This document shows, piece after piece, positions 4,918-28,528 of a stretch of 32,000 nucleotides of DNA. How positions within the stretch are numbered: position 1 is the stretch's first letter; every line of letters starts with the position of its first letter. This stretch comes from Candidatus Saccharimonadota bacterium (GTDB taxonomy: Bacteria; Patescibacteriota; Gracilibacteria; BD1-5; UBA2023). The stretch covers positions 150,001-182,000 of the forward strand of contig BAAFHK010000002.1 in the NCBI GenBank assembly GCA_042852035.1, read 5' to 3'. A program made the position numbers and the translations under genes. The notes under the pieces were generated by a model, which ran no database searches, had not been told where the DNA came from, and saw nothing but the letters and a program-made list of their open reading frames with translations.

Positions 4918-6387
4918 ATGATCTATCAATCATCATTACTTGATGAGATCGCAATACAGCTAGAAAAAAGCGATCCATTTATTATTCGATCTAACGGAGT
5001 AAGTATATCTAGAAATCAGTACAAACGAGAACTTGATTTTTTTACATATCAAATATCTTCATTTCTTTCTTGCGGTGATGTTTTTAGTGTTTGGATAGAT
5101 AATGAAATCCTTTTTTCTCAAATTATTCTTGCAGGTCTTCGATCTTGATCGGTTGCATGTTTAATTGATCCGGAATGATGAAATGCAATAGTTAAAAATC
5201 AAATCCTTGAGGCAAAAGTACAATATATATTTATAGAATGAAAAATATTTGATATATTTTTTCTAACGAGAAATCCACTTCTCCAACTACCAGTGCAATA
5301 TGTCATCGTATGATTTAGTGTCTTTGGTTTTCGGAGAAAGAAAATTCTTTGTGGGATCAGTGAAGTTCACCTCCCAGAAACAAAAAAACTTAATGAAAAC
5401 GAGCCTTCAATTATTGTTTTTACATGATGAACAACAGATGTTCCAAAATGAGTGGTACATACGCATAAATCACTTGTGGCTACCGCACAGAATTTACTGC
5501 CACTCTTCTCTCTCGTGAAACGTATGTATGTGGATATGCCACACTTTCTTCTCTTTGGATTACTTTTGGGTATTCCTATGGTAACAGGAAAGAATAGATT
5601 TTCGTCAAGAAAGGTATTTTCAATTATAAAAAAATATAATGTTGATGGATATTTCTCGCCACCGTATAGATATAATTTCCTTATTAAAAAAGGATATGTC
5701 CCAGCATCATTGAAGCATATATATATTTGATCGGCACCAGTCTATTATGGATTTCTCACAAGATTAATCTCTATTCTAAAATGAGATCAAAATATACATT
5801 GTATTTATTGAATGACGGAAATTCTCCCTATTGCAATGATTGATTGACGTGAAAAATTAGATTTCTGAAATGTTGCATGAGATATACTCTGAAGAGTATA
5901 TGGTAATATTGAAGTTAAATGCAGAAATCAAGAATTTCTTGTAAAATGACCACATGTGTCAGCATGATATTTATGAGATACAAAAAAAGAGTATATATCA
6001 ACGGGTGATTGTTGATATATTTCCGATGGTCTTCTCGTTCTGACTTGAAGAAAGAAAGATATGATAATTCGAAAGGATTTTAATATCTATCCTGCTCTTT
6101 ATGAGTCAATTATATCAAAGATTCCCTGAGTTATTGAGGTTGCCCTAGTTGGTGTATATGAGAGTAAAAATGCTGATGAGAAGATATTTCTCTTCTTGGA
6201 AGTATCATGAATAGTTTATAAAAAAGAAACAATTTTATCACTGCTTAAAAAATGAAAGTATTCCATTGATGAATTTGCTCTTCCTGATGAAATACTCTTT
6301 ATGAATCTTCCAAGGAAGTGAAGGCAGAAAAAAATTGATAAAGAAACACTTCGCCAATTTGCTAAAAAAAATTATTTATGAGGATAG
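4918..6387 (+). CDS. AMP-dependent synthetase/ligase (fatty-acyl-AMP/CoA ligase or OleC-like beta-lactone synthetase candidate)
   Basis: 489 aa. IIVFTGGTTDVPKGVVHTH (three motif Gly encoded by TGA at 5425-5430 and 5449-5451), IYGMTE, STGDCGYISDGLLVLTGRKKDMII, LPRKGRQKKIDK. Starts 1 nt after the upstream stop. Confidence 0.85.
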
Positions 6388-7262
6388 CTATACTGGGTGC
6401 TCTATGATTTGTTGGTCGAAATATAGTTCGATATTTCAAAAATAATAATGAAATATTCGCGTTTGTTCGTAGAATTGGGGATCATGAAGAATGAGTAGAA
6501 TATATTTTTTGGGATAATTCATATGAGCCCAATTTTTATGAAAAAATTGATGTTTGTATTGATTGTGTTTCTGATGTTGATTTTACGAAAAATGATACTT
6601 ATCTGATGGGAAATAATGTCTGAATATTGAAACAGACAAAGAAATTTCTTGAAGATACAAGCTGTGAGCATTATATTTATATATCAAGTTCTTCAGTATA
6701 TATGGGGAAAGATGGCATTCTCCATGAAGCTGATTGAATCGATATCAATAACTTGAGAAATTCCTATGCAAGATCAAAATATTTTGCTGAAGAGTATATT
6801 CGGAATAATTTTAAAAAATGAAAAATCACTATTCTTCGTCCTAGAGCTATATATGGAGATGATGATACGACGCTCCTTCCAAAGTTACTTTCATTACATT
6901 TTTTTTCCTATCTCATTTTTCCTTGAAATCAGAATATTTTTACTTCCGTTACACATATAGAAAACCTTCTTCATGCTCTTGATACGGTTATAAATAAGCA
7001 AACTGATTTGTATGGACACTATAATGTCTCAGATGAGAAGCAAGTTTTATATAAAGATTTGTATACAAAATTGGTTTTAAAATATGGATTTTCTAGAACT
7101 ATATCCCTTCCAGGTTTTATCATTTTTGTATTAAAGTATATATTACCCAATAAATGGGGATATATAGAAGATACATTCTCTAGAAATAAGCAGCTTGATA
7201 TTTCAAAAATTAAAACATTATGATACAATCCAAAGAAGGATTTAGACTCATTCCTTTCTTAA
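6378..7262 (+). CDS. NAD(P)-dependent epimerase/dehydratase-family SDR (OleD-like candidate)
   Basis: 294 aa. Rossmann motif MRIAILGALGFVGRNIV, catalytic YARSK, ILRPRAIYGDDD. Overlaps the upstream ligase by 10 nt. Confidence 0.8.
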
Positions 7263-7278
7263 AATTGATTCATTTTCT

Positions 7279-9501
7279 ATGTCACACAAAAAGGAAATAG
7301 TAGACGAAGTTACAGGACTTTTTCCTGTGAGTGTTAAAAAAATATTTACTCCTGAATCTATTGAGGATATACAGAAGATTCTTAAGGAGGAACCCTGAAA
7401 GATCTCAATTGGTTGAGGTCGATATAGCATGTGAGGACAAACAGCAGTATTGTGAGGTATTCAGATTGATATGAGAAAGATGAAAAAAATTCTTCATTTT
7501 GATGAAAAAAAGAAGTGTATTACCGTGGAAACGGGGATTACATGGAGAGATATACAAGATTATATTGACCCATACAACCTTTCGGTCATGACGATGCAGA
7601 CCTATTCGAACTTTACGGTGTGAGGTTCTCTTTCTGTAAACGTTCATGGGAGATATATCTGATATGGTCCACTTATTCTTTCTGTAGAAAGTATTAAAAT
7701 TATTCTTGCTGACGGTACAATAAAACTCGCGTCAAAGGTAGAGAATAGTGATATATTTTTTGCAGCAATCGGAGGGTATTGAGGTATATGAATTATTATT
7801 GAGGCAACTCTTCATCTCAAGGAGAATAGTATGCTCGAAAGAAAATATGAAGATATGGATTTACATCTCTATGGCGCCTGGTTTAGGGATAATGTGAGGA
7901 ATAATCGAGATGTTATTTTTCATAATGCTGATATATATCCGCCTCATTATAAAAAAGTTCGCGCCACAAGCTGGGAAAAGACAAAAAATCTTGCAACCAC
8001 TAAAGACGCCCTCATTTCAAGGAATTGATCGTATCCTATTCATCGGATAGCATACTTTCTTATGACCTATTTTAGATTTTGAAGACTTGATTTTGGAAAA
8101 TGGATTCGAGAATCTATTATAGATCCTCTTGTTTATGCTCATAAGGAAGTTCATTCTCGTAATTATGAGGCAAGTTATGATGTTGCAGAGCTCGAACCAA
8201 AAAGTCGAGAAAAAACCACATACGTTCTCGAGGAGTATTTTTGCCCTGTTGATAAAATAAATATTTTTGTTCCTAAAATGGCAGAAATATTTCAAAGACA
8301 TAATGCTAATATTGTAAATATTTCGATACGTCATGCCCTTCCTGACAATGGATCGATTCTAGCATGGGCAAAAGAAGAAGTTTTTGCTTTCGTGGTATAT
8401 TATAACCAAGAAACTACCTTACCTCGAAAGAGAGAGGTTGCAGTATGGACCCGGGAACTTATAGATGTCGTGTTATGAGTCGGTTGAAGATATTATCTTC
8501 CGTATCAACTTCATGGAAGTCTCTCGCAAATAAAGAAGGCTTACCCAAGGTTTCAAGAATATTGCGACATAAAGCAAAAGTATGATCCATCGTGAAAGTT
8601 CAGTAACTCTTTGCTTGAGAAGTATTACTTTGAGACTACAAAGAATAATAAAATACTTTCCTCTCGATTTCACACTATATATCATAATGAAGAGTGGAGA
8701 GATAAATTCTTTATTTTTCTTCAAAATATTTTTCATGTAGCACCTACGCATCTCTTCCATAGTCATATCTGGGATTTGATAGAAAAGCATAAAACAGATA
8801 AAGAAATCTATCTTGCTATACAGTCAACAATTTCTCAGATTAAGCCATTACTGGCAGATATTCGTTTTGGGATACCATCGCTCTATAAACAGAAGAATGA
8901 AATAGTTCAAGAGGTAAGTGAGCTTATTCCGAAAAAATGAAAATTTAATGGCTATCTTGAGGTGGGTTGAGCGGGAAGATATATACATCCAATGAAAAAG
9001 ACATACAGGATACATGGTCCAGTATACCTTGTTTCAGATGAGCCAATTGATTACTCTCCAGTTCGAGTTCTCGAAAGATGAAAAATTTCGAAATACAATA
9101 CAAAAAGGCTCACTTATTCTTCCGAAGACCTGGAGCATATACCTACAAATTCTCTTGATTTAGTGAGTATATTTATCGGACTTCATCATGCTCCAGTATG
9201 ACTTTTGGATAGTTTTGTATCTGCACTTTCATCGAAACTTCGTAAATGAGGAATTCTTATTTTAAGAGATCATAATGTTCATGATCCATTTATTTCCCAT
9301 TTTGTTTCGATAGCTCATGATATATATAACGCTTGAACGGGTATTTCATGGGATCAAAATGAAAGTGAACAAAGAAACTTTCGAAGTACCCAAGAATGGA
9401 AAGATTTACTCTGAAATCATGCTTTGAGATTCTGCGAGAAAGAAGTCCTACAACAACATGATCCAACACTCAATACGCTCATGTGTTTTATAAAAGAATA
9501 A
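7279..9501 (+). CDS. Fusion protein: N-terminal FAD-binding (PCMH-type) oxidase domain plus C-terminal class I SAM-methyltransferase-like domain
   Basis: 740 aa in a single frame. FAD domain ISIGGGRYSMGGQ, VGGSLSVNVHG, AAIGGYGGIGIIIEATL, GGRYYLPYQLH. MTase motifs YLEVGGAGRY (I), VYLVSDEP, LDLVSIFIGLHH (II), LRKGGILILRD (III). Confidence 0.8.
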
Positions 9502-9512
9502 AAAAATTTCTT

Positions 9513-10574
9513 ATGGGAAAAATTTTCAAAGTTATACTTCATCTTGTTTTATTCATCATTATTGTTGTTATAATTGTACTTTCATTTTCTTGGTATAATT
9601 ATAATCGAGGAGTTAAAAGTGTAGATATTGGTCTTCAGGAACGTATTTTTTCTTGAGTCTCAATAGATAATATCTTTTCGACCGATACCTGATCTATACG
9701 CAGAACATGAAATACATTTATGAGCATACCGGAATGGTATATAGTAACTCTCTCGGCAGATTATACTAAATGGCTTGAAGAAGGGAAAAATCCGAGTGAC
9801 TTTCCATACTTTCATTATCTGAGTGATATGTGGTATATGTATGGGAGAATTACCGCTATAATGGATGGGAAAATACCGAGAGATTATGAATACCATACCA
9901 TGGTGCAGGTTATATGACTTAGTACCACTTTAGAGTTTTGATCTAAAGCGATTTATGAATTAACCCTCTGAAGAATAACATCATTTTTTTGATATAACAC
10001 ACAAGAGGATCGTTATTATCGGGATTTTTCTCGGAAATATGTGAATTTTATACTTCTTCGTCCATGGTATGAATTTCCATTTCGTGAGCTTAGAGAAGGC
10101 TTCCGGTTGAGAGAGTATAGTATAAGAGGTATAGAGCGATTTGCTATAATCTCTATTGAGTTATATTTAAAAGAGAAATATGCAAAACTCATTGAAGATG
10201 CGGCCCATTCGAATTTTGCCACTCCTGATATATGGACTAGCCTGGAGTGAAATTTTTCAAAAAAAACTATAAGTACATTAGGTCTGAAAGCAGAGGAGAT
10301 GACTTGAGGGATAAGAATCCCTCGTTATTATCCATTCACTGAAATTTTTCCTGATATTATTGAGAATAGAGAAAATCGAGTATATTCTATAGCATGAAAT
10401 AAATATATCGTGAGTGAGTTTTTATGAGCTGAACAAGACACGAATGCATTTCTTTCATTTCCCCTCCCTACAGAGCCGAAAATCTTTCGATCCTATTATT
10501 TTACAAGTATTGATTGATTAAAAACAAACCTCTCTAATCCAAAAAGTACCCTTATACATATTTATGATTTTTAA
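9513..10574 (+). CDS. N-terminally membrane-anchored hypothetical protein
   Basis: 353 aa. N-terminal TM KVILHLVLFIIIVVIIVLSF. W/Y/F-rich soluble part. I recognise no family. Confidence 0.7.
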
Positions 10575-10576
10575 TT

Positions 10577-11875
10577 ATGAAAAACTATTCTCTGATTCTA
10601 AAAAATATCGATAGAACTTTTGAAAAGGCTTTGAATTCTCTGAAGAAAGATCCTATTTTTTCATCGAATCAAACTCTCTATACGGATGATGATAAAAATC
10701 GTATAGCGTTATATTGGAAAGATATTTTAAAGCCATTTTGAGAACTTCAAAGAATTATACGTTCACTCATGTGGCGGTCATTTTTTACTTTCGGAAGTAA
10801 AAATATATTTGTCGTCAAATATTCGGCAATAATCACCTATTACAATATGGTCTATGAACTTCAGCAGAGCTTTGGTCCTCATGAGGAATTTCTCAGGCAA
10901 TATCTTGATGATACATTTTCAGAGAATTATTCCACCCTTGCTCGATTTATGTACCACATAAGATTTTACAGTATTCTTTCATACCCAAGAGAGTATTTTC
11001 TCTCCCTCAGGGATGAGGTAATTCCTTCGCTTGCGCCACTTTTTGATAGACCAGAAAAGCATGCTTGAGATGTTGAGAAACGATGGAAACATGACCTCAT
11101 AAACATATGGTACTATGTAAGATATAAAATGAGCTTAGTTCTTACTTGGATATCGAAGCATGGAGGGAGACTTATGATGCACATTCATCTGAGAAAGCGA
11201 GAACATTGACTTATATCCCTTGAAAATCTCAAATCAGTAGAGAAGCTTCTTAGTCCAGGTGATATACTTCTTACTCGTGGAAATTGGGCGGCTACAAACC
11301 TCAATATTCCATGATTTTGGAAGCATATGGCAATGTATATAGGAACAGGGAAGTACTTAAAGGATTCTTATACTTATGAAAAGCTCTCACTTCTTGATGA
11401 CTCAACTCATTATATTATAGAGGCAATAGGAGTATGAGTACAGATTATCCCCCTTGAGTCTCTTTGCGGGCATAATGATTATCTCTGAGTATTACGACCG
11501 AAATTCAAAAATGAGAAAGTATCACGAGCCATAGAAAAAACCCTTAAACTTGAAGGGAAGTCCTACGATTACTCATTTAACTATTATAGTGATGTCAATT
11601 ATGTTTGTTCTACTCTTGTAACGAAGGCCTATCTTCCAGAATCATATACTGATGAAGGGATACATATATCACTTACTCGAATAGGAACAGGAATCACTTA
11701 TCCTCCGAATGATATCGTAAAAAAATATAGTGTTGAGTATATGACGAAGAAAGAGGAGCTCACATTTGTTGCATTTATTGATTGTATTGATAAGACGGGT
11801 CAAAGTTTTCTTGCTACCGAAGAGGCTTTCCGAAGTTCGGGCTTTAGACCAAAACTTTCTTTTTTTCTTCCCTAA
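10577..11875 (+). CDS. YiiX/YaeF-like permuted papain-fold (NlpC/P60 superfamily) protein with about 200-aa N-terminal extension
   Basis: 432 aa. SPGDILLTRG...FWKHMAMYIG, IIEAIGVGV, KSYDYSFNYYSDVNYVCSTLVTKAY match the family motif order. Confidence 0.7.
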
Positions 11876-12445
11876 ATGCATTTTGAGTATCATAAAAAAT
11901 CATGAGAAAAAATTGATGAAGCAAAAAAAAGTGGTTTTTTCTCTCTGGGTGATCTTTCTGATGAGAGTGTTCTTGCAAGATACTATATTTCGAGATATTT
12001 TCATGATACATATTCTTTCATTCCATTCCTAGATAAAGATAGAAATGGTTTTCCACTGCCGATAATCTCCTGAAGCCTCGGAACATTTTATTGGTCAATT
12101 TCTCACTCAGATGAATATGTTGCATGGATGATAGATAAAAATCCTTGCGGTATTGATATTGCTCAATATTTTATTCGAGATGAATCACTTCTTTCCAAAC
12201 ATGATGAAGAAGAATATGAAATACTCTGAGAAAAATCATGGAAAAATTTTTATAGACTTTGGACTTCAAAAGAGGCACTTATAAAGAAACTTTCTCTCAC
12301 TCTTGATGACATGGAGAAAATTAAGCTTTTTTCTTCAGATAAAGAACAACTCGTATTTGTATTTTTCTCCGAATCCCATACAATTACCACAATTCAAGAG
12401 GATAAAATTTTTATTTCCTTTACTCCATCATATGAATCGATTTAA
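11876..12445 (+). CDS. 4'-phosphopantetheinyl transferase (Sfp/EntD type)
   Basis: 189 aa. SISHSDEYVAWMI, PCGIDIA, FYRLWTSKEALIKK. ATG abuts the upstream stop (11873-11875). Confidence 0.8.
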
Positions 12446-13637
12446 GACATTTTCCTTATTTCTTATTCTGGTGGCGGTATGGGCACTTTTCTTTGCTACG
12501 GTGAAGTTTTTTCTTTGGGGTGATCTTTCTGAAGAATTCCAGCCTGATCTTCAGCAAATTGCTTGATATCTTTCGCTTTGATGAGCAATCGCGTTTCTTA
12601 TAGGCTGAGCCTTTGCTCAAACTTTCCTAAAAAAGTATTATCTTTTTATCATTGCTCTTCTTTCCTCAGTTTTTATTCTTTATGCTTATCTTGTAGGATT
12701 TTCGAGAGAGATACTTTTTGCTGCAACAGTTACAATTCTCTGATTTCTCTACGGATTATGGAATGTAATGAAAAGCGTTATTATCTCGATAGAGATTAAA
12801 AAGACAAACCTTCCTGAAACTGCTGTAACTGCAATTGTTGGGATGATGTTTGTGATTTGTATTATATTTTGATCTCTTCTTGGGACTATTGCTTATGAGA
12901 AAATAGGTCATCATGGATATCTTTTATTGCTAGGATATCTTCTTCTCGCAGGAATTACTTCATTCTTTCTCGACTATGACGGAGTATCTTTCAGATCCCT
13001 TCTTACAAAGTGATGGAAAAATTATCTTATGGGTCGCAAGCAAAGCCTTGCAGTATCGATGAAGGCATATATTCCAGATCTTATTTATATCACAAAACAC
13101 TATCTTCCAATTATCGTAACTTCATCACTTTTCTGGTCTATTTCAACTATTATTTCCCAGGCTTCAGTAGAATATAGTAGCGCAACTTTTGGTATAAAAA
13201 GCTCACAAGCGACGATGATTCTTCTCTATTCAGCCGTGGGAGCTATAATAGGAAGTTTTCTCTCTATAAAAATGTGAAATAATCGATGGATGTATTTTAT
13301 GATTTTTAGTATCCTTTTTTCTCTCTCTACAGCTATGATTCCTGTATTTGGTTCTTCATTTGGGAATCTTTCAATCATTGCAACAGTGCTTGGAATGTGT
13401 TTCTGAACGGCTGTAAACCTTTCAGATTCCTTTCTTTTAAAATCGTTTGGTGATGAAAATAAAAAGGAGTATGGCGCATCCACAATGGGGCTTATATTTT
13501 CTATTATACTTTTTCTATCAATGTTCTTATCAAGTATGTTACTTCAGAGGCTCTGATATCATACGGTTATGTATATTTTCTCTGGAATAATTCTTACTAT
13601 TTGAGTTTCACTTGGTATTTATAAATTAAAAAAATAA
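12432..13637 (+). CDS. Multi-pass membrane transporter (MFS-like)
   Basis: 401 aa, about 11-12 hydrophobic helices in two halves separated by a basic loop (LLTKGWKNYLMGRKQS). Overlaps the PPTase gene by 14 nt. The MFS assignment is by topology only. Confidence 0.6.
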
Positions 13638-13661: not shown

Positions 13662-16600
13662 ATGAAACATTCTTCTTTACTGGTGGTTTTGGTAGCGAGT
13701 TTTCTCACTCTTTTTGCAGGTATTTCATTGGTATCTGCCATTTCTGTACGTACAGTTGAAGCAGTGAAGGAAGAAGCTTTTACAGGAATTGAATATCCAG
13801 AAGGTGAGAGCTTTGTGAGATTGAAGCAATTGATTGATGAGACTTTTACCGTTCAAAAAACGAAATCCCGTTACTCATATTGATTTTATGGTACTTATCC
13901 TTCATGTATCTCAGATAGATGGCTTTGTACGAATTATAAGTATACAAGCCTTACCGAAAAATCAATAAAGTATATTATACTTGAAACTTATGTATGAAAT
14001 GAAAATTTTTATAGAAATCTTTTTCGATTTTCATCTTCTTACTCAAGTTATGGTGATGATACCTATGGTGGCACTTCTTCATGAAACTCGAAATCTCAAG
14101 TGGCAGAAATTCTAAAACTTGTTCCAGTAGGTAAAAGTGTACTTGCACCAGTATCAAATATTTTTTCTCAAAAATCAACATATTCCTACTACAATCCTTC
14201 AAGCAATATCTGAGCGAATCTTCTTTCCTCAAGCTTCTGAGTCGATTTTACCGAGAATAGCAGTCAAAATACTATGCTCTGAGCGATCGAACAAAAGATA
14301 AAAGATATGAAGCGATCGAAGTGTCAGAAAGAAATCCAATCACAAAATTACAATGCCATCAATTCTAAATGCCCATGGACTGGTGAAATTTCAAATCGAT
14401 ACCTTCCAACCCTTGAAGAGCTTCTTTGAGAAAATATCTATTATAATGGAAGGTCAGTAAGTATAAAGAACATAAAGGATCAATTCGAATATAGTATATC
14501 ATGATCCATCTCGGTAATCGATAGGGAAGTCACTCAGTATGACTACAATAAAAATATAATGCCCTTCTATGATAATCTTCCTTGAGAATGAGAAGTATTT
14601 TCGGGAGGTTCTGGTGAGGCGCCTTGAGTAAAAAGAGTTGCCTCTAATATGTCTTTTCTTGAAAGTAAGTGAATATCCTTAGTGGCCTCACCTTCGATTG
14701 CAAAATCAAATGAGCTCCTTGATCTTGTAAATCAAGAATTAATGTATTCACATGATGAGTCAACCAAGGCTTATCTCAATGCCCTTAAAGAGATGGGTAC
14801 GTATTATATTAATGAATTTCAAAAAGATACCCTCCTCGAACCGACCTATACTCTTCGTCTTTTGAAGAATTCGTATACTCTTGAAGAGGCAAAAGCAGAA
14901 CTAGAGAAAAAACAATCAGAAACTGACACTATTTTTCGAGGTTCGAGCTGAATTCTTTGACAACTTCCGTGTATACTCGAAGGAAGTTATATCGTTCGTT
15001 CACAGTGTGCTGCCGCAAGGGCAAATATGAATACTGTTATGACGGCACTAGGGGCTTATTATTCAGATAGAGAAACATACCCAGATACTCTAGAGGCGCT
15101 CAATACGAATTATCTTCCAAAACAACAAGTTCTAGAGGACTTCAAGAAGAATTTTTCTTATAGATCAATATCAGGAACAACAAGTTCAAGTAATGACTAT
15201 GAAATAGTCTATATAGGAAAGATTTGAGAAGGGTCTCTCTCAACTTCAGATAAGCCTGATTATAATCTCCTTCTCTCATGAGCTCAAGTTCCCGAAATTC
15301 CAGCAATTTTTTCTCGTGCCCCTTCTGATAGTGTCGTGCTTTATGTAAAAAATCCCCAGAATCTTTTTGCCCTCCTTGAGACAAAATCCAATACCTCCAC
15401 AAGACTCTCATGAATGGATGTATCTCAATCTGTAAAACAAACCATTCAAGATTTTTTTGAGTTAAAGGACTTTTCAACACTTGAAGAAAATCTCGAGCAT
15501 GAAGCACTTTTGGTGATTGAGAACCTAGATTTTAGCGCTCCAGATGTAACCCTTATACTCTCTGAAGAAGATCGTGCTGCTCTTTCTCCATCAGCAAAAG
15601 CACGAGTAGTTGGTTCAAAAGATGGATTTATCTATGTCTCAAGCTCCAAATCAACAATCGATAGATTTATGGATCTTCCTGAAGGAAAAAGTCTTTCGGA
15701 ATCTCCTGATTTTCGATATGTTTGGACAAAAAAATCAGGCCTAATAAAAGATGCTTACATGTTTGTCGGAGATGCATTTTTTGAGAGAATGCTCACGCTA
15801 GAAACATATATTACTCATTATCGAAAATTACGTGATGTTGAGCGGCTTTCAAAACTTCAAGAGCTGGTTTGGTCCTATCAGGATGCCTATGGGAAATTGC
15901 CTAAAAATCTTGATGAGTTAATTTCTCAATTTGATGCCGAAGGCAAATTAAAGCCATTTATCAGTGATTTCTCAATAACGGAAGATGGTAGGGTAGTACA
16001 TAAGAATATTGGTGCGATTGGAAGTATAAAAACTATTCCAGAAATTAATTATGATATCTCAACAATATCTCAATCGGAACTCGATGACTACAAAACAAAT
16101 GTTCTTAAGTATAGAGATACCTGGAGAGCTTCTCTTGATCCGATGGGTATTGTCATGAATCGATATGGAGATGGTATTGAAGTTGATTTCTTTATGACGC
16201 CAATTCCGAAACTTGATTGAGACTTTAAAGATATTCAAGATATTTTTGAATGAGCTACGAAAGAGTCATTCGATTATTTAAATAATCAAAAATTACGTCT
16301 TTGAATTCTTACTCTTGTTGCTGGCTTTGATCCAAAAAAGCTTCAAAATAAAGCTGCGGAAATTAAAGATTTCTGACAAGGCCTAGAACAAACCAATGCT
16401 GAACTCCTTGATGGAAAGAATATCTTTGATTACATAGGCGGAGAGTGAGCTTTTACTCTCTGAAATATTCCATCAGATATTCTCGATGGATGGAATGTGG
16501 AAAAGATTGATGCTCACTTTGCAATAGAATTTGTCTCAAAGGAGAAAGGAAAAGAGTTTATAGATATCGTAAGAAAAAAATTCCTTTCTCGTTATGAGAG

Positions 16601-17792
16601 TGCATCAGACGGATATTTCGATATGAAAAGCTTCTTTGCAAAGCCACTCATTGAGGACTATCAATGAGAACAGATATATTATATTGAGGCAATTCCTGTT
16701 CCTTTCGTTGGGAAAATTGGCTTTGCCTATACCTTTATAGATAACTTCTTTTTTATCGGACTGAATCGAACCAGTATGCGACATGTTATCGATGTTGCTA
16801 ATTCGGGTGATGATGCTCGAAAGACCTTACTTGATTGAAGTACAGTTCTAGAAAACTCGTTTTTTGTCGGACTTCTCGATGGAATTACCGCATCGAGCGA
16901 TCTCAAATGACTCTATGAAAAAAACCGTACTTCCATACCTCGCTACGCATCACTTCTTGATAAAAATGATTCTTGACTACAAGGACTCAATCAGATACTT
17001 TCCTCATATCATGTGTCTTACACAAGATCAAAGAGACTTGGTATTGATTCAAAGCCATTTGATTTCACACTTTGAGGACTTAGTATCAAAGAAATTGATG
17101 GAGATTTATGGGTTCGTATCGATGAATCGCTCCAAAATGATCTTTCAGGGACTACCCTTCAGCTTTGGGAAAATATATCATCTGATGAACGTTTTCCGAG
17201 AGCATTAGTCGGAGATATGGGTATTAAAATCCAAGAATTTCTTATGAATCCTATGAAATCTGAAATTCTAGCCTTTGAACTTATCGTAAAGCTTGATCAT
17301 GCTTTTGAATGAAATGAATCACTTCTTCGAAACTCAACCTTCTCATTGTCAGTAAATGAGAATGAGATTTGATTCCTTTCTCGAGTCTTTCGAGAAAGAG
17401 ACACTCATGGAAATACTTGAGAGACTAAAGGTATCTTTTCATGAATAAATTCTGCATATATTATTTGATGATGAGTTTTCATAGTACTTGTAATAATCCT
17501 TTGAGGAGGATTCCTGTTGTATAGCAGAAAGAAAAATATTGGACTAAACAAGAATAATCCGTCTAACTCTCAAGCTTCTCCAGGTTCATCCTTAGCAAAC
17601 TATAGCCTTCCTCCTGGGATTATCATTGGCGATGAACAATCAGTGCTTATTAAGCCAACTGCAACCCCAACTATATCCGAAATAGTGCAGTCAGTAGATC
17701 AGGCATCTTCATCATGAGAAATTGCAATAAACACATCTCAGTCACCAACAACAGGTGAATCATGAAATAATAGTCTCCCTTCCCAAAGTTAG
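13662..17792 (+). CDS. Giant secreted protein, 1376 aa, signal peptide plus C-terminal TM anchor and S/P/T-rich tail
   Basis: One uninterrupted frame with TGA=Gly, checked codon by codon. N-terminus MKHSSLLVVLVASFLTLFAGISLVSA. TM IIGGGVFIVLVIILGGGFLLY (17460-17522) followed by SRKKN and a low-complexity tail. Ends TAG 17790-17792. Confidence 0.8.
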
Positions 17793-17793
17793 T

Positions 17794-18405
17794 ATGGCAC
17801 ATATAATTGCCAAAGATATCTCATTTATTCGCTCAGGGAAAGCAATTTTTTCTCACAGAGACTTTTCGATTTATCCTGGAGAGATAGTTCTTATTAAGGG
17901 GCCATCAGGTTCTTGAAAAACCACTCTTTTAAGGGTTCTGTGATGACTTATAAAAGAAAATAGTGGAAGTATCGAACGATCTTTTTCTCAAAGAGATCGA
18001 CTACGACTGTGTGGTTTTCATTTTGTTGATGGTCCTTTCCTTGAATATCTTACAGTAATGGAGAATTTGCTTATATTAGAGCTTTTCTCGGGGATTCTTC
18101 TTTCTCGAGAATATCTTCATGAATTAGCGGAAGTTTTTGAAATTTCCCACTTACTTTCAAGAAAAATATCTTCTCTTTCATCATGACAAAGAGAAAGAGT
18201 GAGTATTATTCGTTCATTTTTACATAATCCAGAGATTGTTTTTTTAGATGAGCCTGGATCGAACCTTGATCAAGTTATGGAAGAAAAAGTAAAGCTATTC
18301 CTTCTTGAGCAAATAAAAAAAGGGAAGTCTTTAGTTTTTTCTACCCACTCTGGAACGTGGGACGTATATGCAAAATCAATTATTGAACTCCCTTTGTATG
18401 AATAA
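17794..18405 (+). CDS. ABC transporter ATP-binding protein (MacB/LolD/FtsE-like)
   Basis: 203 aa. Walker A GPSGSGKTTLL (Gly from TGA 17914-17916), signature LSSGQRERV, Walker B IVFLDEP. Confidence 0.9.
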
Positions 18406-19606
18406 GAATTTCTTTTCTCTTCTCATAGTAATGATTCGTACTCCATGGAGAAGTATTTCCATGTTCCTGGTGGTTATAATTATATCTCTCTCAGGACTCT
18501 TGCTTCTTACATGAGAAAAAAATATTCTTCGAGCCCTTGAATACTATCAATATAGTCCACTTGATGAAAGGCGTTTTACTCTCAGTATTGATACTGATAT
18601 ATTCTCTCTCTTTTCCCGTGATTCAAAGGGGATAGATCCTATAGTTTCGAAAAATTTAGAAAACGATTCAGAGATTGAGTCTATCACGCGGTTTACTCTT
18701 GTTGAGATACCAGTGCTTGCGAAGTTTGGAATGTTTACGTTTTCTCTAGAGACTGATATGCCAATATTTGCTGTATCAGATAATGCGCTTACATGATCAC
18801 ATACCCCAATGGGTATATCTCAGATTCTCATTGATTTTTATAATAAAGAATTTTCTTGAACCTCACCTTTTTTTCCTTTATTTACGAAAGATATGGTTCT
18901 TGGACAAAAGGTTACACTTGAGTTCTGAAAATCGAAACTCTTTACTTTTGATTCTCATTCATCAACTCCTCTTGCAGGTGTTATAACTTCTATAAAAAAT
19001 GACTATCCATGATTTGGTATTATGATACAAGAAACTCAAGTGAAAGAGAAACTTTCAGAAATTGGAGTTTCACTGGGAAATCCATATAAAATTATTGGGT
19101 ACATGAAAGATCCATCGTATAAGAAGGAACTTGAGAAAAAATATGGCACTGATTTTAGGCTTGAATTTGATGAAGAAGCGGTAAAAAAACTCAAGGAAAA
19201 AGCACAGGCATTCCGATATATCATAAGGACTTTATGAATTGCTCTAGCATCGATTCTTATTATCATTTTTTGATTCCTTCTTTCATGATATTCAAGAGAA
19301 CGGTCAGATGTATATAGGCTTTTTCAGATGCTCGGCATAACTGGCATACGATCTCGCGTATTTCTTCTTCTTGAGCCAGTACTTCTCGTAGCTTTTGGTA
19401 TAATAATGGGATATATTTTGTTTCGATATATTGAGAAGTATATTCTCTCTTCGTTGGCTCATATGCTTTTGAATCAATGAATTGATTTTCCACTTTTTGT
19501 TGCAAACCCCCAATCCGTTCTTATTCTCTCGCTCTTTCTTTTCTGAGTGATTCTAATTCTTATTTTTATAGAGGATATCCTTATGAGAAAGAAACAATGG
19601 CTTTAA
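18398..19606 (+). CDS. ABC transporter permease, FtsX/MacB-type (4 TM with large extracytoplasmic domain)
   Basis: 402 aa. TM1 ISMFLVVIIISLSGLLLL, a soluble loop of about 240 aa, then 3 C-terminal TMs. Overlaps the ATPase gene by 8 nt. Confidence 0.8.
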
Positions 19607-19717: not shown

Positions 19718-21691
19718 ATGTCACTTGCTACCGAGATTCGTACCAAATATCTAGAATACTATCGAAAACAAGGTCACGCTATTGTTCCTTCATCGCCACT
19801 CCTTCCAGAGAATGATCCTACGACACTTTTTACCGGATCTGGAATGCAGCCAATGCTTGCATATCTTCTTGGTGAGCCACATCCGTTAGGAACTCGTATA
19901 GCTGATTCACAGAAATGTTTTCGAGCCGTTGATATCGATGAAGTAGGCGACAATCGTCATACTACCTTTTTTGAAATGCTTGGAAACTGGTCACTTGGGG
20001 ATTATTTCAAAAAGGAACAAATTCCATGGATGTGGGATTTTCTTATTAATCATCTCTGACTCAATCCAAAAAATCTTTATATAACATGCCACATTGGATC
20101 AAAGGATGCTGGTATAGCTCGTGATGATGAGGCAGCAAACCTTTGGAAGGATCTTTTTAGGGAAGTGGGTATTGATGCTCGAATGAGTGAAGAAGCAGCA
20201 ACAAAGGGAATGATGCCAGGGGAGAGGATATTTTTTTATGAGGATAAGAAAAACTGGTGGAGTCGTGCCTGAGTTCCAGCAAAAATGCCAGTAGGTGAGC
20301 CTGGTGGCCCAGATTCTGAAATGTTCTGGGATTTTGATCCGAATGGAGAGAAGCGTATACATGAGCGTTCAATATGGAAAGAGCTCCCTTGTCATGTAAA
20401 TTGCGACTGTGGTCGATTTCTTGAGATTGGGAATAATGTCTTCATGGCTTACAAAAAAGAATCAGATGGATTTCGGGAGCTTGCTGGGAAGAATATAGAT
20501 TTCGGTGGTTGACTTGAGCGTATTGCTATGGCTATGCATAATACCTCGGATATTTTCATGACAGGAGTTTTTGATAAACTTCGAACAACTTTAGAACATC
20601 TTACATGAAGAAAATACGGTGAGGAGTATATAGTTACAAATTCATTCAGAATTATAATGGATCATCTCCGTGCAGCAACCTTCCTTATAGGAGATGGAGC
20701 ACTTCCTTCAAATGTTGATGCATGATATTTTGTTCGTCGTCTTATTCGACGAGCTATTCGTGCTGGTCGACGCATAGGCCTTCTTGAAAATTTTACTCAT
20801 GTTCTTGCGGAGACGGTTATTGCAGATTATGCTGATGCTTACCCAAGCCTCCTTACGGGCAAGGAAGTTATATTACGTTCGCTTTCAGAAGAGGAAGAAA
20901 AGTTTCGCCGAACACTTGAGCGTTGAGAGAGAGAAATCGAGAAACTTCTTTCAGGAAGTGAAAAAATTGATGGAAAAAAGGCTTTCTGGATTTTTGAAAC
21001 TTTTGGTTTTCCTCGAGAGATGACTGAGGAGATTATTCTTGAACATATTGCTCTTGGGCATGGGGGACTTACAGATATTGCAAATGTTGAGATACTCAGA
21101 GAGAAGCTTTATGAGGCAAAGCCAGAGCTCAGAGGTGAGATGGAGGCTTTTGCTCATGATTTTTCAGAGAGCGCAAAAGCACATGCAGATTTGTCGCGTA
21201 CTGCTGCAGCAGGGAAGTTTGCTTGATGACTTGCTGATCACTCTGATGAGACTACAGCACTTCACTCAGCATGTCATCTTATGCTCGCATGACTCCGAAA
21301 GGTTCTTGGGGCTCATGTTCACCAAGCAGGTTCAAATATCACTGCTGAGCGACTTCGTTTCGACTTCACTCACCCAGAGAAAATGACTCCAGAGCAAATT
21401 AAGTCCGTCGAAGAGTATGTAAATACCGCTATAAATGCTGGACTCACCGTCACAGTGACAAATATGGATAAAAATGAGGCGAAAGAGAGCGGTGTGGAAG
21501 GATCATTCTGGGAGAAATATCCAGATATTGTAAAAGTATATTCTATGGTCGGAGCTGATGGGGTTGCCTACTCACGAGAACTCTGCGGTGGTCCTCATGT
21601 TGAGAACTCGAAAGAAATGGGAACATTTAAGATTATCAAGGAGGAATCAAGTTCAGCAGGAGTGAGGCGTATTAAAGCAGTTCTAGAGTAG
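19718..21691 (+). CDS. alaS: Alanine--tRNA ligase, short form lacking the C-Ala domain
   Basis: 657 aa. YYRKQGH, LLFTGSGMQP, SQKCFR, RHTTFFEMLGNWSLGDYFK, FGGGLERIAMA, GAGYFVRRLIRRA. Editing-domain motifs HSACHLM and CGGPHV. Ends TAG 21689-21691 just after GVRRIKAVLE. Confidence 0.95.
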
Positions 21692-22389: not shown

Positions 22390-23670
22390 ATGTTAGGAAT
22401 CTTTCTAGGATACTATCTTTTGTTTCATTATTCGGCCAAGGTTATTTCACAAATACCTGTGGTTTCAGTGAATTATGTTGATACAGGATATAATCCTGAC
22501 TATATCGAGGTACCAAAAGGAACATTAGTCCTGTTTTTGAATCATTCGTCATATCCTATGTGGACCGCTTCAGATCCACACCCTGTACATACTGATTATT
22601 CAGTTTTTGATGCAAAAAAATCATACGGAACTGGAGAAATATTCCCATTCTTTTTTAAAGAGACGGGTACGTATGCTTGGCATAACCATGAGAAATCTGA
22701 TCATAGAGGGATTGTACGAGTTTATGATCCTAAAAATCCACTTCTATCCATAGATAAGACAAAAAAGGAACTGAGAGAAACTCGGGATAAATTTCTCGCT
22801 ATGCTTGATCCTCGAGATGATACCACAGTTGGGCATATGATAGATACGCTTGAGGCAGATACTAAACTTTCACGTAACTGCCACGATATGGCTCATGACC
22901 TTGGACATCGTGCCTATGAGTACTATGGATTTTCTCGGGCCATGACTTTTGGTACTGGAGTTGAGAATACTTCCGTCGATGATATATGTGCGGGCGGGTA
23001 TATGCATGGCATACTAGAAGAGTTGTTTCTTCATCATAAAGAACTCCAAAAAACCCCAGAAAAGGTATGTGCATCGGTGAATGAATTACATAAATGAAGT
23101 TGCTATCATGGTGTGGGACATGGCGTTATGTTTGCAATGAAACGAAATATATCTAATTCTCTTGCGTCCTGTCGCACTATTTCAAATCAGACATATGTAT
23201 ATAGATGTTTTGAATGAGTATGGATGGAGATGTTTTGGTGAGATACGGGTCATGCGGGAGCTGATTCACTTGGTTGGAATCAAGATAGACCTTTCGATCG
23301 TTGTATAAAAGCTGAGCAAGATGAAAAACCAACCTGTTTTCTTTATGCACATTTAGGATACTTACGATATCATTCTGGAGATTTTACGGGTGTGATACGA
23401 TTTTGTACAGCATCGAATCTTACCGATTCTGATAAGCAGTTTTGTTTGAAATGAGTTGGAATTACTATGATGAAGCATTTTACGAGCCATCATCTTGATA
23501 AGACAGAATGACTTGTAAAGAATCTTTCCTATAATCAGAAATTTTCATATTATCAGTGAGTTCTCTGATACTCTATATTATCTAATGTTCCACGAGCTTC
23601 ATTGGCAGGTTTTTGTGAGAAGCTTCTCAATGATACAAATATCTGTAAAGAGGCGCTCAAAACACAGTAA
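22390..23670 (+). CDS. Membrane-anchored protein: cupredoxin-like N-domain (no Cys ligand) plus Cys/His-repeat C-domain
   Basis: 426 aa. N-terminal TM. EVPKGTLVLFLNHS...GTYAWHNHEKSDHRGIVRV resembles a plastocyanin-type C-terminus with Trp where Cys is expected. Then repeated C-x2-3-[GA]-x2-H-G-like motifs. Confidence 0.6.
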
Positions 23671-23679
23671 ATATACTCT

Positions 23680-23937
23680 ATGCAATATCCAAGATTACAT
23701 TCTCGCTGGCGCCACTATAAATCTCAATGATGAGACGATCATACGTACGAGGTTCTTGGGGTATTTATCCACTCAGAATCGCATGAACCGATGGTGGTCT
23801 ATCGCCCACTCTATATGGTTCCAGAAGATTCTTGGGTCTACGGATTTCCAGGGGCAGTTCGACCACTTTCGATTTGGTATGATGAAGTCGAATATAAAGG
23901 GGAACATGTCCAGAGATTTGCAGAAATTATTTCATAA
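23680..23937 (+). CDS. DUF1653-like small protein
   Basis: 85 aa. RWRHYKSQGGDDHTYEVLGVFIHSESHEPMVVYRPLY...VRPLSIWYDEVEYKGEHVQRFAEI matches the YRHYKG...Y.V...HSE...VVY..LY...RP...F...V..RF pattern. It lies in a different frame from track ORF 23585..23959. Confidence 0.7.
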
Positions 23938-23959
23938 ATTATTTACATATGTGACTTGA

Positions 23960-24205
23960 ATGACTTGCACGATTAAAATCTGAAATTGATGCAAATGGTC
24001 TCAGAATTCATGGACCGTCGCATATCTTTATTTGAGATGAAGTGACCCCAGTCTGAAATATTACAAAAAGATGAAAAATCGTTATCCCTTTATGAACGGT
24101 TCTAAAAGTAGAAAATATACTTGTAAGAAGTCAGGATGGTGCGGGGCTTTGATTTGAAAAAAGAATCACCTTTGATTGATTAGAGGGTGAATTCTCTCCG
24201 AATAA
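23960..24205 (+). CDS. Tentative small basic Cys-containing ORF (81 aa), very uncertain
   Basis: Open only with TGA=Gly, with 6 TGA in 81 codons. CTIKIGNGC and CKKSGWC pairs. No recognisable family. A competing 38-aa ORF sits in another frame. Confidence 0.25.
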
Positions 24206-24893: not shown

Positions 24894-26330
24894 ATGAAAA
24901 AACGCACAAAAATAATTGCAACTGTTTGACCAGCTACAGCATCAAGTGAGATGCTTCTGGCTCTTTCTCGGGCAGGAGTGAATATTATTCGATTTAATTT
25001 TTCTCATGCGGATTATGATTCCGCTACATTGATAATCGATCGCATCCGAGACCTTAATAAAAGTGGGAAAACTTCCCTCGCTCTTCTTCTTGATACAAAA
25101 TGACCAGAGCTTCGAACCGGCGATTTGAAGGAGAAAATCCAATATCAAATAGGAGAAAGATTTCGTATTTACACTCAGGGGTCCAATTCGATATCCTGAG
25201 AAAAATCCATTACTTGCGACTATCCTTATTTAATTGAGGATATTTCTATTTGAGATGCTATTGAAATTGATAGTGGTCTTTTTCATGCAGTTGTCATAGC
25301 GAAGGGTTCTGATTTTCTTGATGTTGAAGCAAAAAATGATGCCATTATATGATCACGGAGACATGTGAATCTTCCGGGGATTAAAATCCGTATGCCAGGA
25401 ATAACAGAGAAGGATAAACAAGATCTCCTTTTTGCCATAAAAATGGGTTTTCACTTCATAGCAGCTTCATTTATAAGAACGGAGCAAAATGTGAGAGAAA
25501 TCAGGGAGTTTCTTGATGAAAACTCTGGAGATGAAATTAAAATTATTTCAAAGATTGAAAATGAAGAGGGTATAGAAAATCTTGACTCGATAGTTGGGAT
25601 ATCTGATGGTGTTATGGTTGCTCGTGGGGATCTCTGAATCGAGGTGCCAATAGAGAAAGTCCCAAAATATCAGAAACGAATTATCGATCTTTGTCGTCAA
25701 AGAGGGAAATTTGTAATCGTAGCTACCCATATGCTAGAGAGCATGATAGAACATCCGTTTCCCACGAGAGCGGAAGTTTCTGATATATTTCGGGCTGTAC
25801 TTCAGTGAGCTGATGCTACGATGCTTTCCTGAGAGACAACGACAGGAAAGTATCCCATTGAATCCGTTGATATGATGCGAAGTGTTATCCTCGAAGCAGA
25901 GTGAGAACTCGAACATAAGCACCATGAGTATGTGAGTGATTGACTTACAGAAAGGGATATCGAAAAAAAATACCTTATACGAAGCGCCTTACATATTGCT
26001 GAGGAGCTTCATCTTAAAACAGTCCTAGTATTTACAAAATCTTGACGACTTGCTCGTCTTGCCGCGGCGTATAGGCCTAATATATCCATAGAAGCTTTTT
26101 CTGGAAATCCTTCATCAGTTGGCTATATGCAGGTTCTTTATGGGGTGACGCCACATATACTTCCTCATTGGTGAGACCACCAGAAAAATCTAGAAGATGC
26201 CCTAAAGCTTCTTCTAGATGCAGGTACTATAAATCTTGATTCAAAGATTATAGCAGTTACTGATGTTGTGAAAAATTCAAAAGAAATTCCTGTAATGGAG
26301 ATTATTCGTGTCGGTGATATATTTCACTAA
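24894..26330 (+). CDS. pyk: Pyruvate kinase
   Basis: 478 aa. [89 protein letters not shown]. Several motif Gly residues are TGA. Confidence 0.95.
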
Positions 26331-26340
26331 TCATATTTTT

Positions 26341-27669
26341 ATGATGGAGTATTCTTATGGCATAACTGTAATTTCCATCATAATCTCCCTTCTCGTTATA
26401 ACAGTATTTACCTCATTGCACTACCGAAAAGTGCTCAAGAAGAATGCTTATATTGATAATCTCGAACGAGAACTCCATATCCTTGAGAAGTCTATTTCTG
26501 AAACGGTTGATCTTATTACTCTCAGGCCACTTTTAAAAAAAGAACTCACAAAGATTTTTCAAACAAAGGTAGCATCTTTAGAGATGTATCAAGAATGAGA
26601 GAATCCATGATTTTTTGAGGTTATTCGAGAGTATTTTCGAGAATATCCTTCTGATCGTGCCTTTGCAAACAATGAGAATTTTATTGCTAATCTCGATGAT
26701 GAGTTACTCAGGAAAAAACTCCAAGGTATTATCCCCCCGGAGATTGCTTTTATTTTTCCTATATTCAGTACCCAAGGCTTTCATATCGGAAATCTTCTTC
26801 TATGAATAAAACGTTCATGAATGACTTATATAAAGGATGAGGTAGAGTTTCTCAAAGAATTCTCATTTTTTATAGAAATACATCTAAAGTATATACGAAC
26901 TTATACGCTTATGCATGAGTTTTCGGCCTTACTTGATGAAAAAGTGGATACAAAAACAATCGCCTATAATAACCTCATAAATCGACAGAAAGAGTTTATT
27001 AAGGTTATATCACATGAAGTGCGTTCACCTTTAACTTCTGCAATATTTCAGGTAGAGTCAGCCATAGAGAGCCTTGAAGGTGAGAGTTTTCAAAAAAATT
27101 CAATCCTTGTAGAGCTCCAAGAACTTCGTGCTCAACTTGTTCGGACCGGGTGACTTATCTCAAAGCTTTTTTCGGTGGAGTACTATGATAATGATAATGT
27201 GAGTCTTTTTCGGGAGGCTATACATTTACCTAAGTTTCTTGAATATGAGATTGAGCTTTTTTCACGTACACACCAAGATATTGCGTTCATTTCACAGATT
27301 GATATAAATGTAGGTTTTGTTCCAATTGATAAAGTACAATTTCAGCAAGTCCTCACCAATCTTGTTGATAATGCAATAAAGTTTACCTCAACAACAAATC
27401 CAATAGTGTATCTGTCGGCAAATAAATTAGACAATAGACTCATTATTACCGTTGAAGATAACGGAAAAGGCTTTTCAAAGAATTCTATGAAATATATATT
27501 TGATAAGTATAATACAGGAATAAATAAGAATATATGACTTGGTCTCTGACTCTACTTGTGTCGTAAGATAGTTACGATGCATAATGGGACTATTAATGCC
27601 TCGAATTCTAATAAATATTGATGAGCTTGTTTTACAATAAGCATCCCAATTTCTCATCAATTTTCCTAG
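26341..27669 (+). CDS. Sensor histidine kinase (single N-terminal TM, cytoplasmic input region)
   Basis: 442 aa. TM ITVISIIISLLVITVFTSL. H-box ISHEVRSPLTS, N-box LVDNAIKF, G1 VEDNGKGF, G2 GLGLGLYLCRKIV (two Gly from TGA). ATG 26341 preferred over GTG 26308, which overlaps pyk. Confidence 0.9.
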
Positions 27670-28336: not shown

Positions 28337-28528
28337 AGATTGAATGTGAGAATACCCCAAATATAAAATTAAATCTTAATTCAATATTAATTTTTTTATT
28401 GTATTATTATTAAATATAAAACTATTTTGATATAAAGCAAAAATATTTCATATAGCATATCCGTGAATATTATATGGTAAGATCAATTCTCTCTGTTCGA
28501 AAAAACTTCCAAAAGAGTATTTTTTTTA

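Follow-up and report, generated by a model that had tools for sequence, protein, structure and literature searches.

A giant membrane-anchored ectoprotein encoded beside a type VII ABC transporter pair in UGA-recoded Gracilibacteria

ATP-binding cassette (ABC) transporters of type VII are defined by the partner on which they act outside the membrane, such as EnvC, LolA, MacA or TesA, and each new partner has revealed a new envelope process. The gene order partner, ATPase, permease is known from spr0693-0694-0695 and yknXYZ. In E. coli, YbbAP-TesA provides a precedent for a type VII ABC unit paired with a lipid-acting enzyme and is proposed to pull hydrophobic molecules or lysolipids out of the membrane (PMC12646458). 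Here we analysed a window of 32,000 nucleotides from a Candidatus Saccharimonadota bacterium that GTDB places in Gracilibacteria (assembly GCA_042852035.1, contig BAAFHK010000002.1, positions 150,001 to 182,000), in which the gene for a giant anchored ectoprotein is followed by the genes for an ABC ATPase and a four-helix permease. These three genes are referred to below as the trio. An earlier reading of this DNA, here called the original prediction, suggested that the giant protein might be a dedicated partner of a MacB/FtsX-type ABC pair and could serve as a regulated adhesin or host-interaction device.

The genome translates UGA as glycine (code 25, as in Gracilibacteria and Absconditabacteria), an assignment made because TGA occupies invariably glycine positions and is the top glycine codon. 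Under translation table 11, only short open reading frames (ORFs) are found at 13662-19606 and the 1376-residue ORF does not exist; the frame of the giant gene contains 38 in-frame interruptions, all of them TGA, and terminates with TAG. When TGA is read as sense, the whole 32-kb window becomes a compact plus-strand gene array. TGA then sits at the invariant glycine of the ATPase Walker A motif (GPSGSxKT) and in its ABC signature (LSSxQ), as well as in the MVARGDLx and KxPE motifs of pyruvate kinase and at several conserved glycines of alanyl-tRNA synthetase (AlaRS). UGA is used 217 times for glycine in the window, against 154 uses of GGA. Where a homolog of the giant protein is named, the label is Candidatus Gracilibacteria, 'Peribacteria' or Patescibacteria. 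Because UGA is recoded, ORF calling and translation by table 11 fail, and in practice the trio genes are invisible or mis-called under the standard code. The gene features that had been described for the locus (1376 amino acids, a signal peptide, a transmembrane helix followed by RKKN, a Ser/Pro/Thr-rich tail of about 90 residues, the 1-nt gap to the ATPase gene and the overlap of the ATPase and permease genes) were accordingly recovered under code 25 only. Tools and databases based on table 11 fragment the window's genes, and many database homologs show Trp at these positions, the product of code 4 translation. Scans of the window for tRNAs and Rfam families gave no matches.

For the comparison of gene orders, we annotated the contexts of three giant homologs and ten species-representative genomes anew under code 25, with labels taken from BLASTP. 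Two more loci (L020 and L021) were found from the permease side, for a total of 15 related Gracilibacteria loci. Giant, ATPase and permease genes were clustered in all 15, so that the expected synteny of the three genes in relatives was found; the 14 full-length giant homologs are 40-65% identical to the giant protein. The order giant, ATPase, permease is kept in all 13 loci of the first set, while L020 has the permuted order ATPase-permease-DUF2339-Lnb_N-giant. In L021 (3268-7272), a 1334-residue giant gene read under code 25 is represented in the public table-11 calls by four antisense 'genes' (190, 253, 333 and 184 amino acids), an annotation artefact that hides the synteny.

Spacing within the cluster is tight. 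A single nucleotide separates the TAG of the window's giant gene from the ATPase ATG at 17794, and the ATPase and permease genes overlap by 8 nt (ATGAATAA). Of the 14 loci in which the ATPase gene follows the giant gene, 13 show anything from an overlap to a gap of 28 nt at this junction, and L021 has 100 nt; in relatives, the ATPase and permease genes overlap or lie no more than 6 nt apart. Promoter and terminator scans of the window did no better than shuffled sequences, and it is the spacing that suggests one operon. The flanks vary. The gene directly 5' of the giant gene encodes a major facilitator superfamily (MFS) transporter in the window, L001 and L007, a protein of no assigned family in L006, and an Lnb_N-type protein in the other 12 related loci, and the trio is followed by an AlaRS gene, an Aas-like gene or another gene. 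The trio also diverges faster than its housekeeping neighbours (giant 40-48% identity, ATPase 34-46% and permease 29-44%, versus 57-78%). Its persistence through rearranged flanks and one permutation argues for a functional link of the giant protein with the ABC pair within this clade, and against gene-order inertia. In L002 (11796-12600, on a 1.29-Mb contig from JGI), the trio ATPase gene is frameshifted, with the C-terminal half from Walker B onward in another frame, which reflects either an assembly error or a pseudogene.

The ATPase keeps its catalytic motifs. Walker A, the signature (LSSGQ), the Walker B glutamate and the H-loop histidine are all retained in 14 orthologs, and every one of the 14 family members has Asp or Glu in place of the Q-loop glutamine (F[IV][DE]GPF). 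It fits no curated NCBIfam subfamily, as all matches fall far below cut-off (LolD, TIGR02211: 86 bits against 307.75; FtsE, TIGR02673: 79.8 bits against 264.85). Prominent among the top sub-cut-off matches are ATPases that work with type VII permeases, namely the Lcn972-type (the best), DevA, LolD, DarD and FtsE. The best PDB sequence matches include PsdA, BceA, the HrtA-type heme exporter ATPase (7w78), Spr0694, MacB and LolD, mixed with MalK and ABCE1.

For the permease, an AlphaFold2 model built with eight homologs reached a pLDDT (predicted local distance difference test) of 76.3. It has four transmembrane helices (16-52, 258-301, 317-359 and 371-401), arranged as helix 1, ectodomain and helices 2 to 4, with a mixed alpha/beta extracytoplasmic domain of about 205-235 residues (residues ~53-257). 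Foldseek against the PDB returned 41 matches at E <= 1e-3, and every one of those listed is a type VII permease or the periplasmic domain of one, with a probability of 1.00. The permeases include LolE (9rlc_E, E = 3.7e-11), LolC, YbbP (9ge6_A, 2.8e-9, ranked fifth), MacB (5gko_A, 5e-9, TM-score 0.48), Spr0695 (5xu1_M, 3.3e-7), YtrF, BceB, the heme exporter and FtsX (3e-5 to 5e-4). The isolated periplasmic domains of LolE, LolC, MacB and YknZ also match. By sequence, the permease scored 22.9 bits against Pfam FtsX (PF02687; cut-off 25.5; relatives 26.1, 25.1 and 17.1), and neither NCBIfam nor a PDB sequence profile search gave a match. By its modelled fold, the ABC pair belongs to type VII (the MacB/LolCDE/FtsEX/BceAB class), which bears out the predicted MacB/FtsX-type assignment. 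Because of its ectodomain size and its matches to periplasmic domains of the Porter + Sabre type, the modelled permease stands closer to LolCE, MacB and YbbP than to FtsX, and its ectodomain is of the Porter/Sabre type. The single permease gene implies a homodimer.

The giant protein is predicted to carry a Sec-type signal peptide (residues 1 to ~26): a hydrophobic stretch at the N-terminus covers residues 3-29 and closes with VSA, the motif from which the cleavage site was placed. A single C-terminal transmembrane helix (~1262-1288) is followed by RKKN and by a tail that obeys the positive-inside rule. This tail has 88 residues, 36% of them Ser, Pro or Thr versus 20% across the whole protein. 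Such tails are found in all 15 members of the family (46-151 residues, 31-61% Ser + Pro + Thr), although their sequence is not conserved. The ectodomain of ~1235 residues holds three conserved cysteine pairs (82/89, 221/237 and 437/449), a species-dependent variable insert (~281-395) and a strongly conserved core (~530-1245), with ~600-700 core residues at 60-84% column identity in the family alignment. Sortase-type anchoring can be ruled out, as there is no LPXTG and 88 residues follow the transmembrane helix. A lipoprotein signal can be dismissed as well, since the protein has no lipobox cysteine and its first cysteine is residue 82, and export as a T1SS-type giant adhesin is ruled out by the Sec signal peptide, an ABC unit of type VII in place of a six-helix exporter, and no membrane fusion protein (MFP). 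Two internal helices (~447-484 and ~720-750) resemble a pseudopilin motif (...AL..YY.D...YP...L). T2SSG (PF08334) scored 20.7 bits on the excised segment, just under its cut-off of 21, and 14.3 bits on the full protein; there is no prepilin leader, the motif is internal and the Pfam threshold is not reached. Since T2SSG was seen in 2 of 15 members, the pseudopilin idea is a lead and not a result. TRCF and BORCS6 matches from excised segments were at chance level. PADLOC gave no defence-system match for the giant protein or the permease, and generic P-loop similarity only for the ATPase.

Pfam and NCBIfam searches of the whole giant protein gave no matches, and PDB sequence searches with a first profile and with a deeper one of 46 sequences found no relative. 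A profile search of 1.84 billion representatives retrieved 290 relatives at E <= 1e-3, many of them fragments from gene calling under the wrong code. A further tier consists of full-length proteins of 860-1220 residues from standard-code organisms, with the same plan of signal peptide, large ectodomain, C-terminal transmembrane helix and basic tail; the named ones come from Candidatus Doudnabacteria and Pseudomonadota. Aligned by hhalign, the Gracilibacteria and distant family profiles match with a probability of 100% and E = 7e-46 over giant residues 457-1049, and the Gracilibacteria proteins add a clade-specific N-terminal region of ~400 residues. The domain search that had been proposed for the giant protein thus found no Pfam or NCBIfam domain; by profile comparison, the protein is not an orphan or isolated novelty, and its core falls in a widespread uncharacterised family. 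Among 26 distant members, eight weakly match DUF3352 (PF11832; best E = 7.8e-7), and the matching stretch aligns to giant residues ~915-1045. The giant protein itself has no DUF3352 Pfam match and distant homologs stay below the threshold (P0103, 15.8 bits against 26.8), so the profile alignments suggest a weak, indirect relationship between the giant protein and DUF3352, for which a literature search found no published description. A few distant members carry added domains: parvulin (PF00639/PF13616), cyclophilin (PF00160), DsbA/thioredoxin (PF13098/PF01323/PF13462), SLH or LamG. The features of the locus are collected in table 1.

Table 1. Coordinates of the trio, of regions within the giant gene and of the upstream neighbours, numbered from the first nucleotide of the window.
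Feature	Coordinates	Strand	Remarks
Giant envelope protein gene	13662..17792	+	1376 aa under code 25; TAG stop 17790-17792
Signal peptide region of giant protein (predicted)	13662..13742	+	cleavage placed between MKHSSLLVVLVASFLTLFAGISLVSA and IS; hydropathy
Conserved core of giant protein, residues 457-1049	15030..16808	+	common to standard-code relatives; hhalign
C-terminal transmembrane helix, basic stop-transfer and low-complexity cytoplasmic tail of giant protein (predicted)	17445..17792	+	features kept, not sequence
ABC ATPase gene	17794..18405	+	203 aa; Pfam ABC_tran (PF00005) 8e-23
Type VII permease gene	18398..19606	+	402 aa; AlphaFold2 model, Foldseek
MFS transporter	12435..13637	+	Pfam MFS_1; 24-nt gap to giant gene
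4'-phosphopantetheinyl transferase (PPTase)	11876-12445	+	recurrent neighbour of trio, context only
YiiX/Peptidase_C92 permuted NlpC/P60 enzyme	10577-11875	+	Pfam; recurrent neighbour, context only

The genes around the trio in relatives point to acyl chains. The Lnb_N-type gene encodes a protein of ~300 residues with an N-terminal transmembrane helix and PF13387 (Lnb_N, formerly DUF4105). In nine loci it is preceded by the gene for a polytopic membrane protein of ~670 residues with DUF2339, and the unit usually comprises five genes, for DUF2339, the Lnb/DUF4105-like enzyme, giant, ATPase and permease. In the Lnb_N-like proteins, His117 and Cys218 are invariant, with a spacing of 101 residues; in Bacteroides Lnb, the experimentally identified DUF4105 lipoprotein N-acyltransferase, the catalytic pair His49 and Cys148 has a spacing of 99 residues (PMC11573676). 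YiiX and DUF4105 have been described as lipid-targeting clades of permuted NlpC/P60 enzymes (PMC12994826). YiiX-type (Peptidase_C92), PPTase and Aas-like genes recur beside the trio; the Aas-like neighbour matches the acyl-[ACP]-phospholipid O-acyltransferase/acyl-ACP synthetase family NF006386 (ACP, acyl carrier protein) at 6.6e-124, below the full-length cut-off. The set Aas-C92-PPTase-MFS lies upstream in L001 and L002, of which C92-(PPTase)-MFS is present in the window and L007; the Aas-like gene of the window lies ~12 kb further upstream. In L003, L005, L006, L008 and L010, the Aas-like gene lies directly 3' of the permease gene. The window's MFS gene takes the slot that an Lnb_N-type gene has in 12 of the 15 related loci, an arrangement syntenic in L001 and L007, and it may be co-transcribed with the trio, to which its link is uncertain. 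No MFP/HlyD, EnvC/PcsB, LolA or BceS-like partner gene lies beside the trio.

The region upstream of the trio in the window (14-13637) is itself a lipid-type cluster. It begins with the C-terminus of the Aas-like protein, an AurF-like di-iron oxygenase, KAS III and two membrane proteins of no assigned family. It continues with a second AMP-binding enzyme, an NAD-dependent epimerase/reductase, a 740-residue FAD_binding_4/ALO oxidase and a 353-residue protein of no assigned family. The YiiX/C92 enzyme, the PPTase and the MFS transporter end the cluster, and the trio follows. One would not expect such a cluster in a lineage described as lacking fatty-acid synthesis. For Gracilibacteria, a dependence on external fatty acids has been reported (PMC6851277).

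Acylated molecules are the likeliest substrates because Lnb/DUF4105, Aas-like, YiiX-like and PPTase genes lie in or beside the cluster. Our tentative reading, which we favour without holding it firmly, is that the locus encodes a conserved Gracilibacteria envelope module in which a type VII mechanotransducer and a giant ectoprotein act on acylated envelope molecules. By analogy with other type VII systems, the ATPase and a homodimer of the permease would convert ATP binding and hydrolysis into movement of the Porter/Sabre domain (mechanotransmission). The giant protein would be exported by Sec and held by its C-terminal helix, with the low-complexity tail in the cytoplasm, and we infer that it contacts the permease as the extracytoplasmic partner that receives the work of the ABC unit. 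The substrates would be lipoproteins, lysolipids or other acylated lipids of the envelope, which the ABC unit would pull from the membrane and pass to the giant protein or have processed on it, and the Lnb_N-like acyltransferase/hydrolase would serve as accessory catalyst where present. LolCDE-LolA and YbbAP-TesA would be the analogues of such a transfer.

The likeness to LolCDE-LolA lies in the 4-helix Porter/Sabre architecture, the separate ATPase and the best structural matches (LolE and LolC), and in the link of the relatives' module to a gene of the lipoprotein N-acyltransferase type. In E. coli, Lnt activity is linked to Lol recognition. The differences are that the trio has one permease gene per locus in the 15 loci, implying a homodimer where LolC and LolE form a heterodimer, that no LolC/E or LolD NCBIfam match reached cut-off and no LolA/LolB-like gene was found in the window or flanks, and that the organism is presumed, by literature assumption, to be monoderm, with no outer membrane target and an anchored protein of 1376 residues as partner. 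The grouping with lipoprotein-release systems, which would have spoken against a new pairing, is thus seen in the best fold matches and in neither sequence family nor partner. YbbAP resembles the trio in being a type VII ABC unit that E. coli couples genetically and physically to an extracytoplasmic lipid-acting enzyme (PMC12646458), but YbbP is a fused 10-helix protein with two extracytoplasmic domains and TesA is a small soluble SGNH hydrolase, whereas the candidate enzyme of Gracilibacteria is a permuted NlpC/P60 protein, absent from the window, and the giant anchored protein is additional. Overall, the ABC pair belongs to the type VII superfamily, but it is not LolCDE, FtsEX, MacAB or BceAB as curated, as judged by equivalog scores, partner types and helix number.

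Several results weigh against a module for acylated molecules. The window, L001 and L007 have no Lnb_N or DUF2339 homolog near the trio, and because both are absent from the window, they are frequent but not obligatory neighbours. The MFS neighbour has no NCBIfam LplT match, so we do not claim an analogy to LplT-Aas. The top rank of LolE and LolC does not discriminate among type VII folds, given TM-scores of 0.3-0.5 and 13% identity. An AlphaFold2 model of giant residues 60-1259 from an 8-sequence alignment was unreliable (pLDDT 46.6) and Foldseek found no significant fold match for it, with nothing below E = 0.13; the top matches (DcrB, TiME and PsbP-like) were set aside as unreliable. The peptidyl-prolyl isomerase and DsbA fusions of distant members suit a role in protein folding equally well.

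The pairing also has limits outside the clade. We examined six distant contexts of giant homologs, from a Doudnabacteria genome (L014), a proteobacterium-like contig (L015), L016, an SLH-bearing member (L019) and two other code-25 lineages (L017 and L018), using public gene calls and searches with hidden Markov models under the appropriate code. None of the six has an ABC ATPase or FtsX-type permease beside the giant homolog. Elsewhere, then, the giant family functions with no such ABC pair; members share the core and the C-terminally anchored architecture, and only the Gracilibacteria clade, within which the pairing arose, is linked to it. This weakens the notion of an obligate dedicated partner family-wide, not the linkage inside the clade, where it stands in 15 of 15 loci. 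L017 (1931-8196) has neither the ABC pair nor Lnb_N, yet a gene for an 883-residue DUF2339 protein lies directly 5' of its giant homolog (9-nt gap); DUF2339 may have been a neighbour of the giant gene before the ABC pair became one. In L018 (9835-13560; GCA_942490775.1, code 25), a CRISPR array lies directly 3' of the giant homolog, with ~60 copies of the 36-nt repeat ATTTAAAACCCCCAAGAAATTTCTACTTTTGTAGAT at a period of 62-63 nt. The repeat ends in TCTACTTTTGTAGAT, which we take to be a Cas12a-type handle, and a large ORF (called at 1152 amino acids) begins right after the array.

An unlikely alternative, and yet a serious one, is that nothing is transported and that the ABC pair switches the state of the giant protein to control division or the remodelling of the wall or envelope, in the manner of FtsEX with EnvC, PcsB, CwlO or RipC. 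The two systems share the type VII fold and the idea of an ABC unit that works on a partner outside the membrane. The permease has significant fold matches to FtsX structures, and FtsE is among the sub-threshold NCBIfam matches of the ATPase. Moreover, type VII systems of monoderms commonly regulate extracytoplasmic proteins (PMC7828314, PMC6705773), the distant giant homolog in L016 lies right after rsmH and an FtsL-sized gene, and the trio of the window does without an Lnb_N neighbour. However, the Porter + Sabre ectodomain of the permease is about twice the size of that of FtsX, and FtsX ranks well below LolCE, MacB, YbbP and YtrF. The extracytoplasmic domain of FtsX, at about half the size (~100 residues), has no Sabre subdomain. 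In Pfam and NCBIfam searches, the giant protein showed no hydrolase, LytM, CHAP or coiled-coil domain of the EnvC/PcsB type, and the recurrent neighbours are lipid-acyl enzymes and not cell-wall genes.

It is quite unlikely that the pair is a MacB/Bce-type resistance or efflux pump, for antimicrobial peptides, toxins or heme, beside which the giant gene is an unrelated neighbour kept by gene-order inertia. The closest PDB sequences of the ATPase (PsdA, BceA, the heme exporter ATPase and Spr0694) would suit such a pump, as would its best NCBIfam match, a lactococcin-972-type export ATPase far below cut-off, and the MacB, Spr0695, HrtB-type and BceB permeases among the fold matches. Compared with MacAB-TolC, YknXYZ and Spr0693-0694-0695, the trio has a gene order like that of the latter two, MacB and Spr0695 as fold matches and a common mechanotransmission architecture. 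Inertia nevertheless fails to explain how the trio is kept amid changing flanks, through the permutation in L020 and with 1-nt and overlapping junctions. Neither the giant protein nor any neighbour has an HlyD/MFP match in Pfam or NCBIfam, the giant protein is anchored C-terminally and not N-terminally and is ~4 times larger than an adaptor, and MacB fuses the ATPase to the permease, where the trio has them separate. The permease has 4 transmembrane helices against 10 in the BceB type, and no two-component sensor of the Bce/Hss type (or BceRS-like system) is adjacent. The two-component genes of the window, a histidine kinase (26308-27669, +) and an OmpR-type response regulator (27671-28360) that is the only clear minus-strand gene of the window, lie ~7 kb 3' of the trio with five genes between, and we saw no link to the trio.

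The adhesin or host-interaction device of the original prediction, in which the giant protein would bind a host surface and be extended, retracted or activated by the ABC motor, we consider very doubtful. The lineage is thought to be host-dependent (PMC11452946), which would suit a large, surface-exposed anchored protein, and so would the faster evolution of the giant protein and permease relative to housekeeping neighbours, the insert that varies between species and the weak pseudopilin-like motifs. Yet no adhesin-type or tandem repeats and no Ig, cadherin or lectin domains were detected in the giant protein, and its well-conserved core is common to free-living-type bacteria (Pseudomonadota-like contigs) and other Candidate Phyla Radiation (CPR) lineages. 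Because the core is conserved and shared with non-symbiotic bacteria, a housekeeping envelope role fits better than a host-specific ligand. The Lnb/DUF4105-like enzyme in the unit and the lipid-acyl enzymes around it point to the handling of lipids or lipoproteins, not to adhesion. Least probable of all is an extracytoplasmic scaffold for folding or secretion quality control, with the giant family as chaperone or holdase whose clients the ABC unit recycles or releases, since the suggestive fusions to parvulin, cyclophilin and thioredoxin/DsbA domains occur in few distant members and in none of the Gracilibacteria giant proteins, and a type VII ABC unit acting on a chaperone has no known precedent.

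Two further observations concern the 3' side of the window. The gene at 19718-21691 encodes AlaRS, and an AlaRS gene often follows the trio (also in L002, L004, L007, L009 and L013). The enzymes fall into two length classes, of 657-681 residues (the window and L004, 84% identical) and of 601-620 residues (~50% identical to that of the window), which suggests two different AlaRS lineages in Gracilibacteria. At 23585-24205, a 206-residue ORF shares 86 nt with the end of the preceding gene, and its sequence is odd and resembles low complexity; despite a short match of 45% identity in L009, the ORF is possibly not a real gene.

Returning to the module for acylated molecules, the five-gene set with the Aas-like, YiiX-like, PPTase and MFS genes could be more specifically a machine for lipid or lipoprotein trafficking in a wall-bearing, fatty-acid-auxotrophic episymbiont, in which the ABC unit extracts acylated molecules and the giant protein spans the envelope as conduit or acceptor. 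We regard this extended version as rather unlikely. If this were so, the cell could take up or remodel lipids derived from its host, or send acylated proteins to its surface, and a monoderm would have, with an unrelated giant partner, a functional analogue of the Lol and Lpt bridges.

New partners of type VII systems are not in themselves surprising. A literature search found no described counterpart of the trio, nor of this partner set among type VII systems. Here, a clade of uncultivated, host-dependent and recoded bacteria keeps the motor tied to an anchored protein of ~1300 residues from an unstudied, widespread family, and most of the clade's clusters hold a relative of the recently discovered lipoprotein N-acyltransferase of Bacteroides. 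For the questions of how CPR bacteria obtain and handle lipids when they make no fatty acids, and of how their surface is built, this cluster is a concrete candidate.

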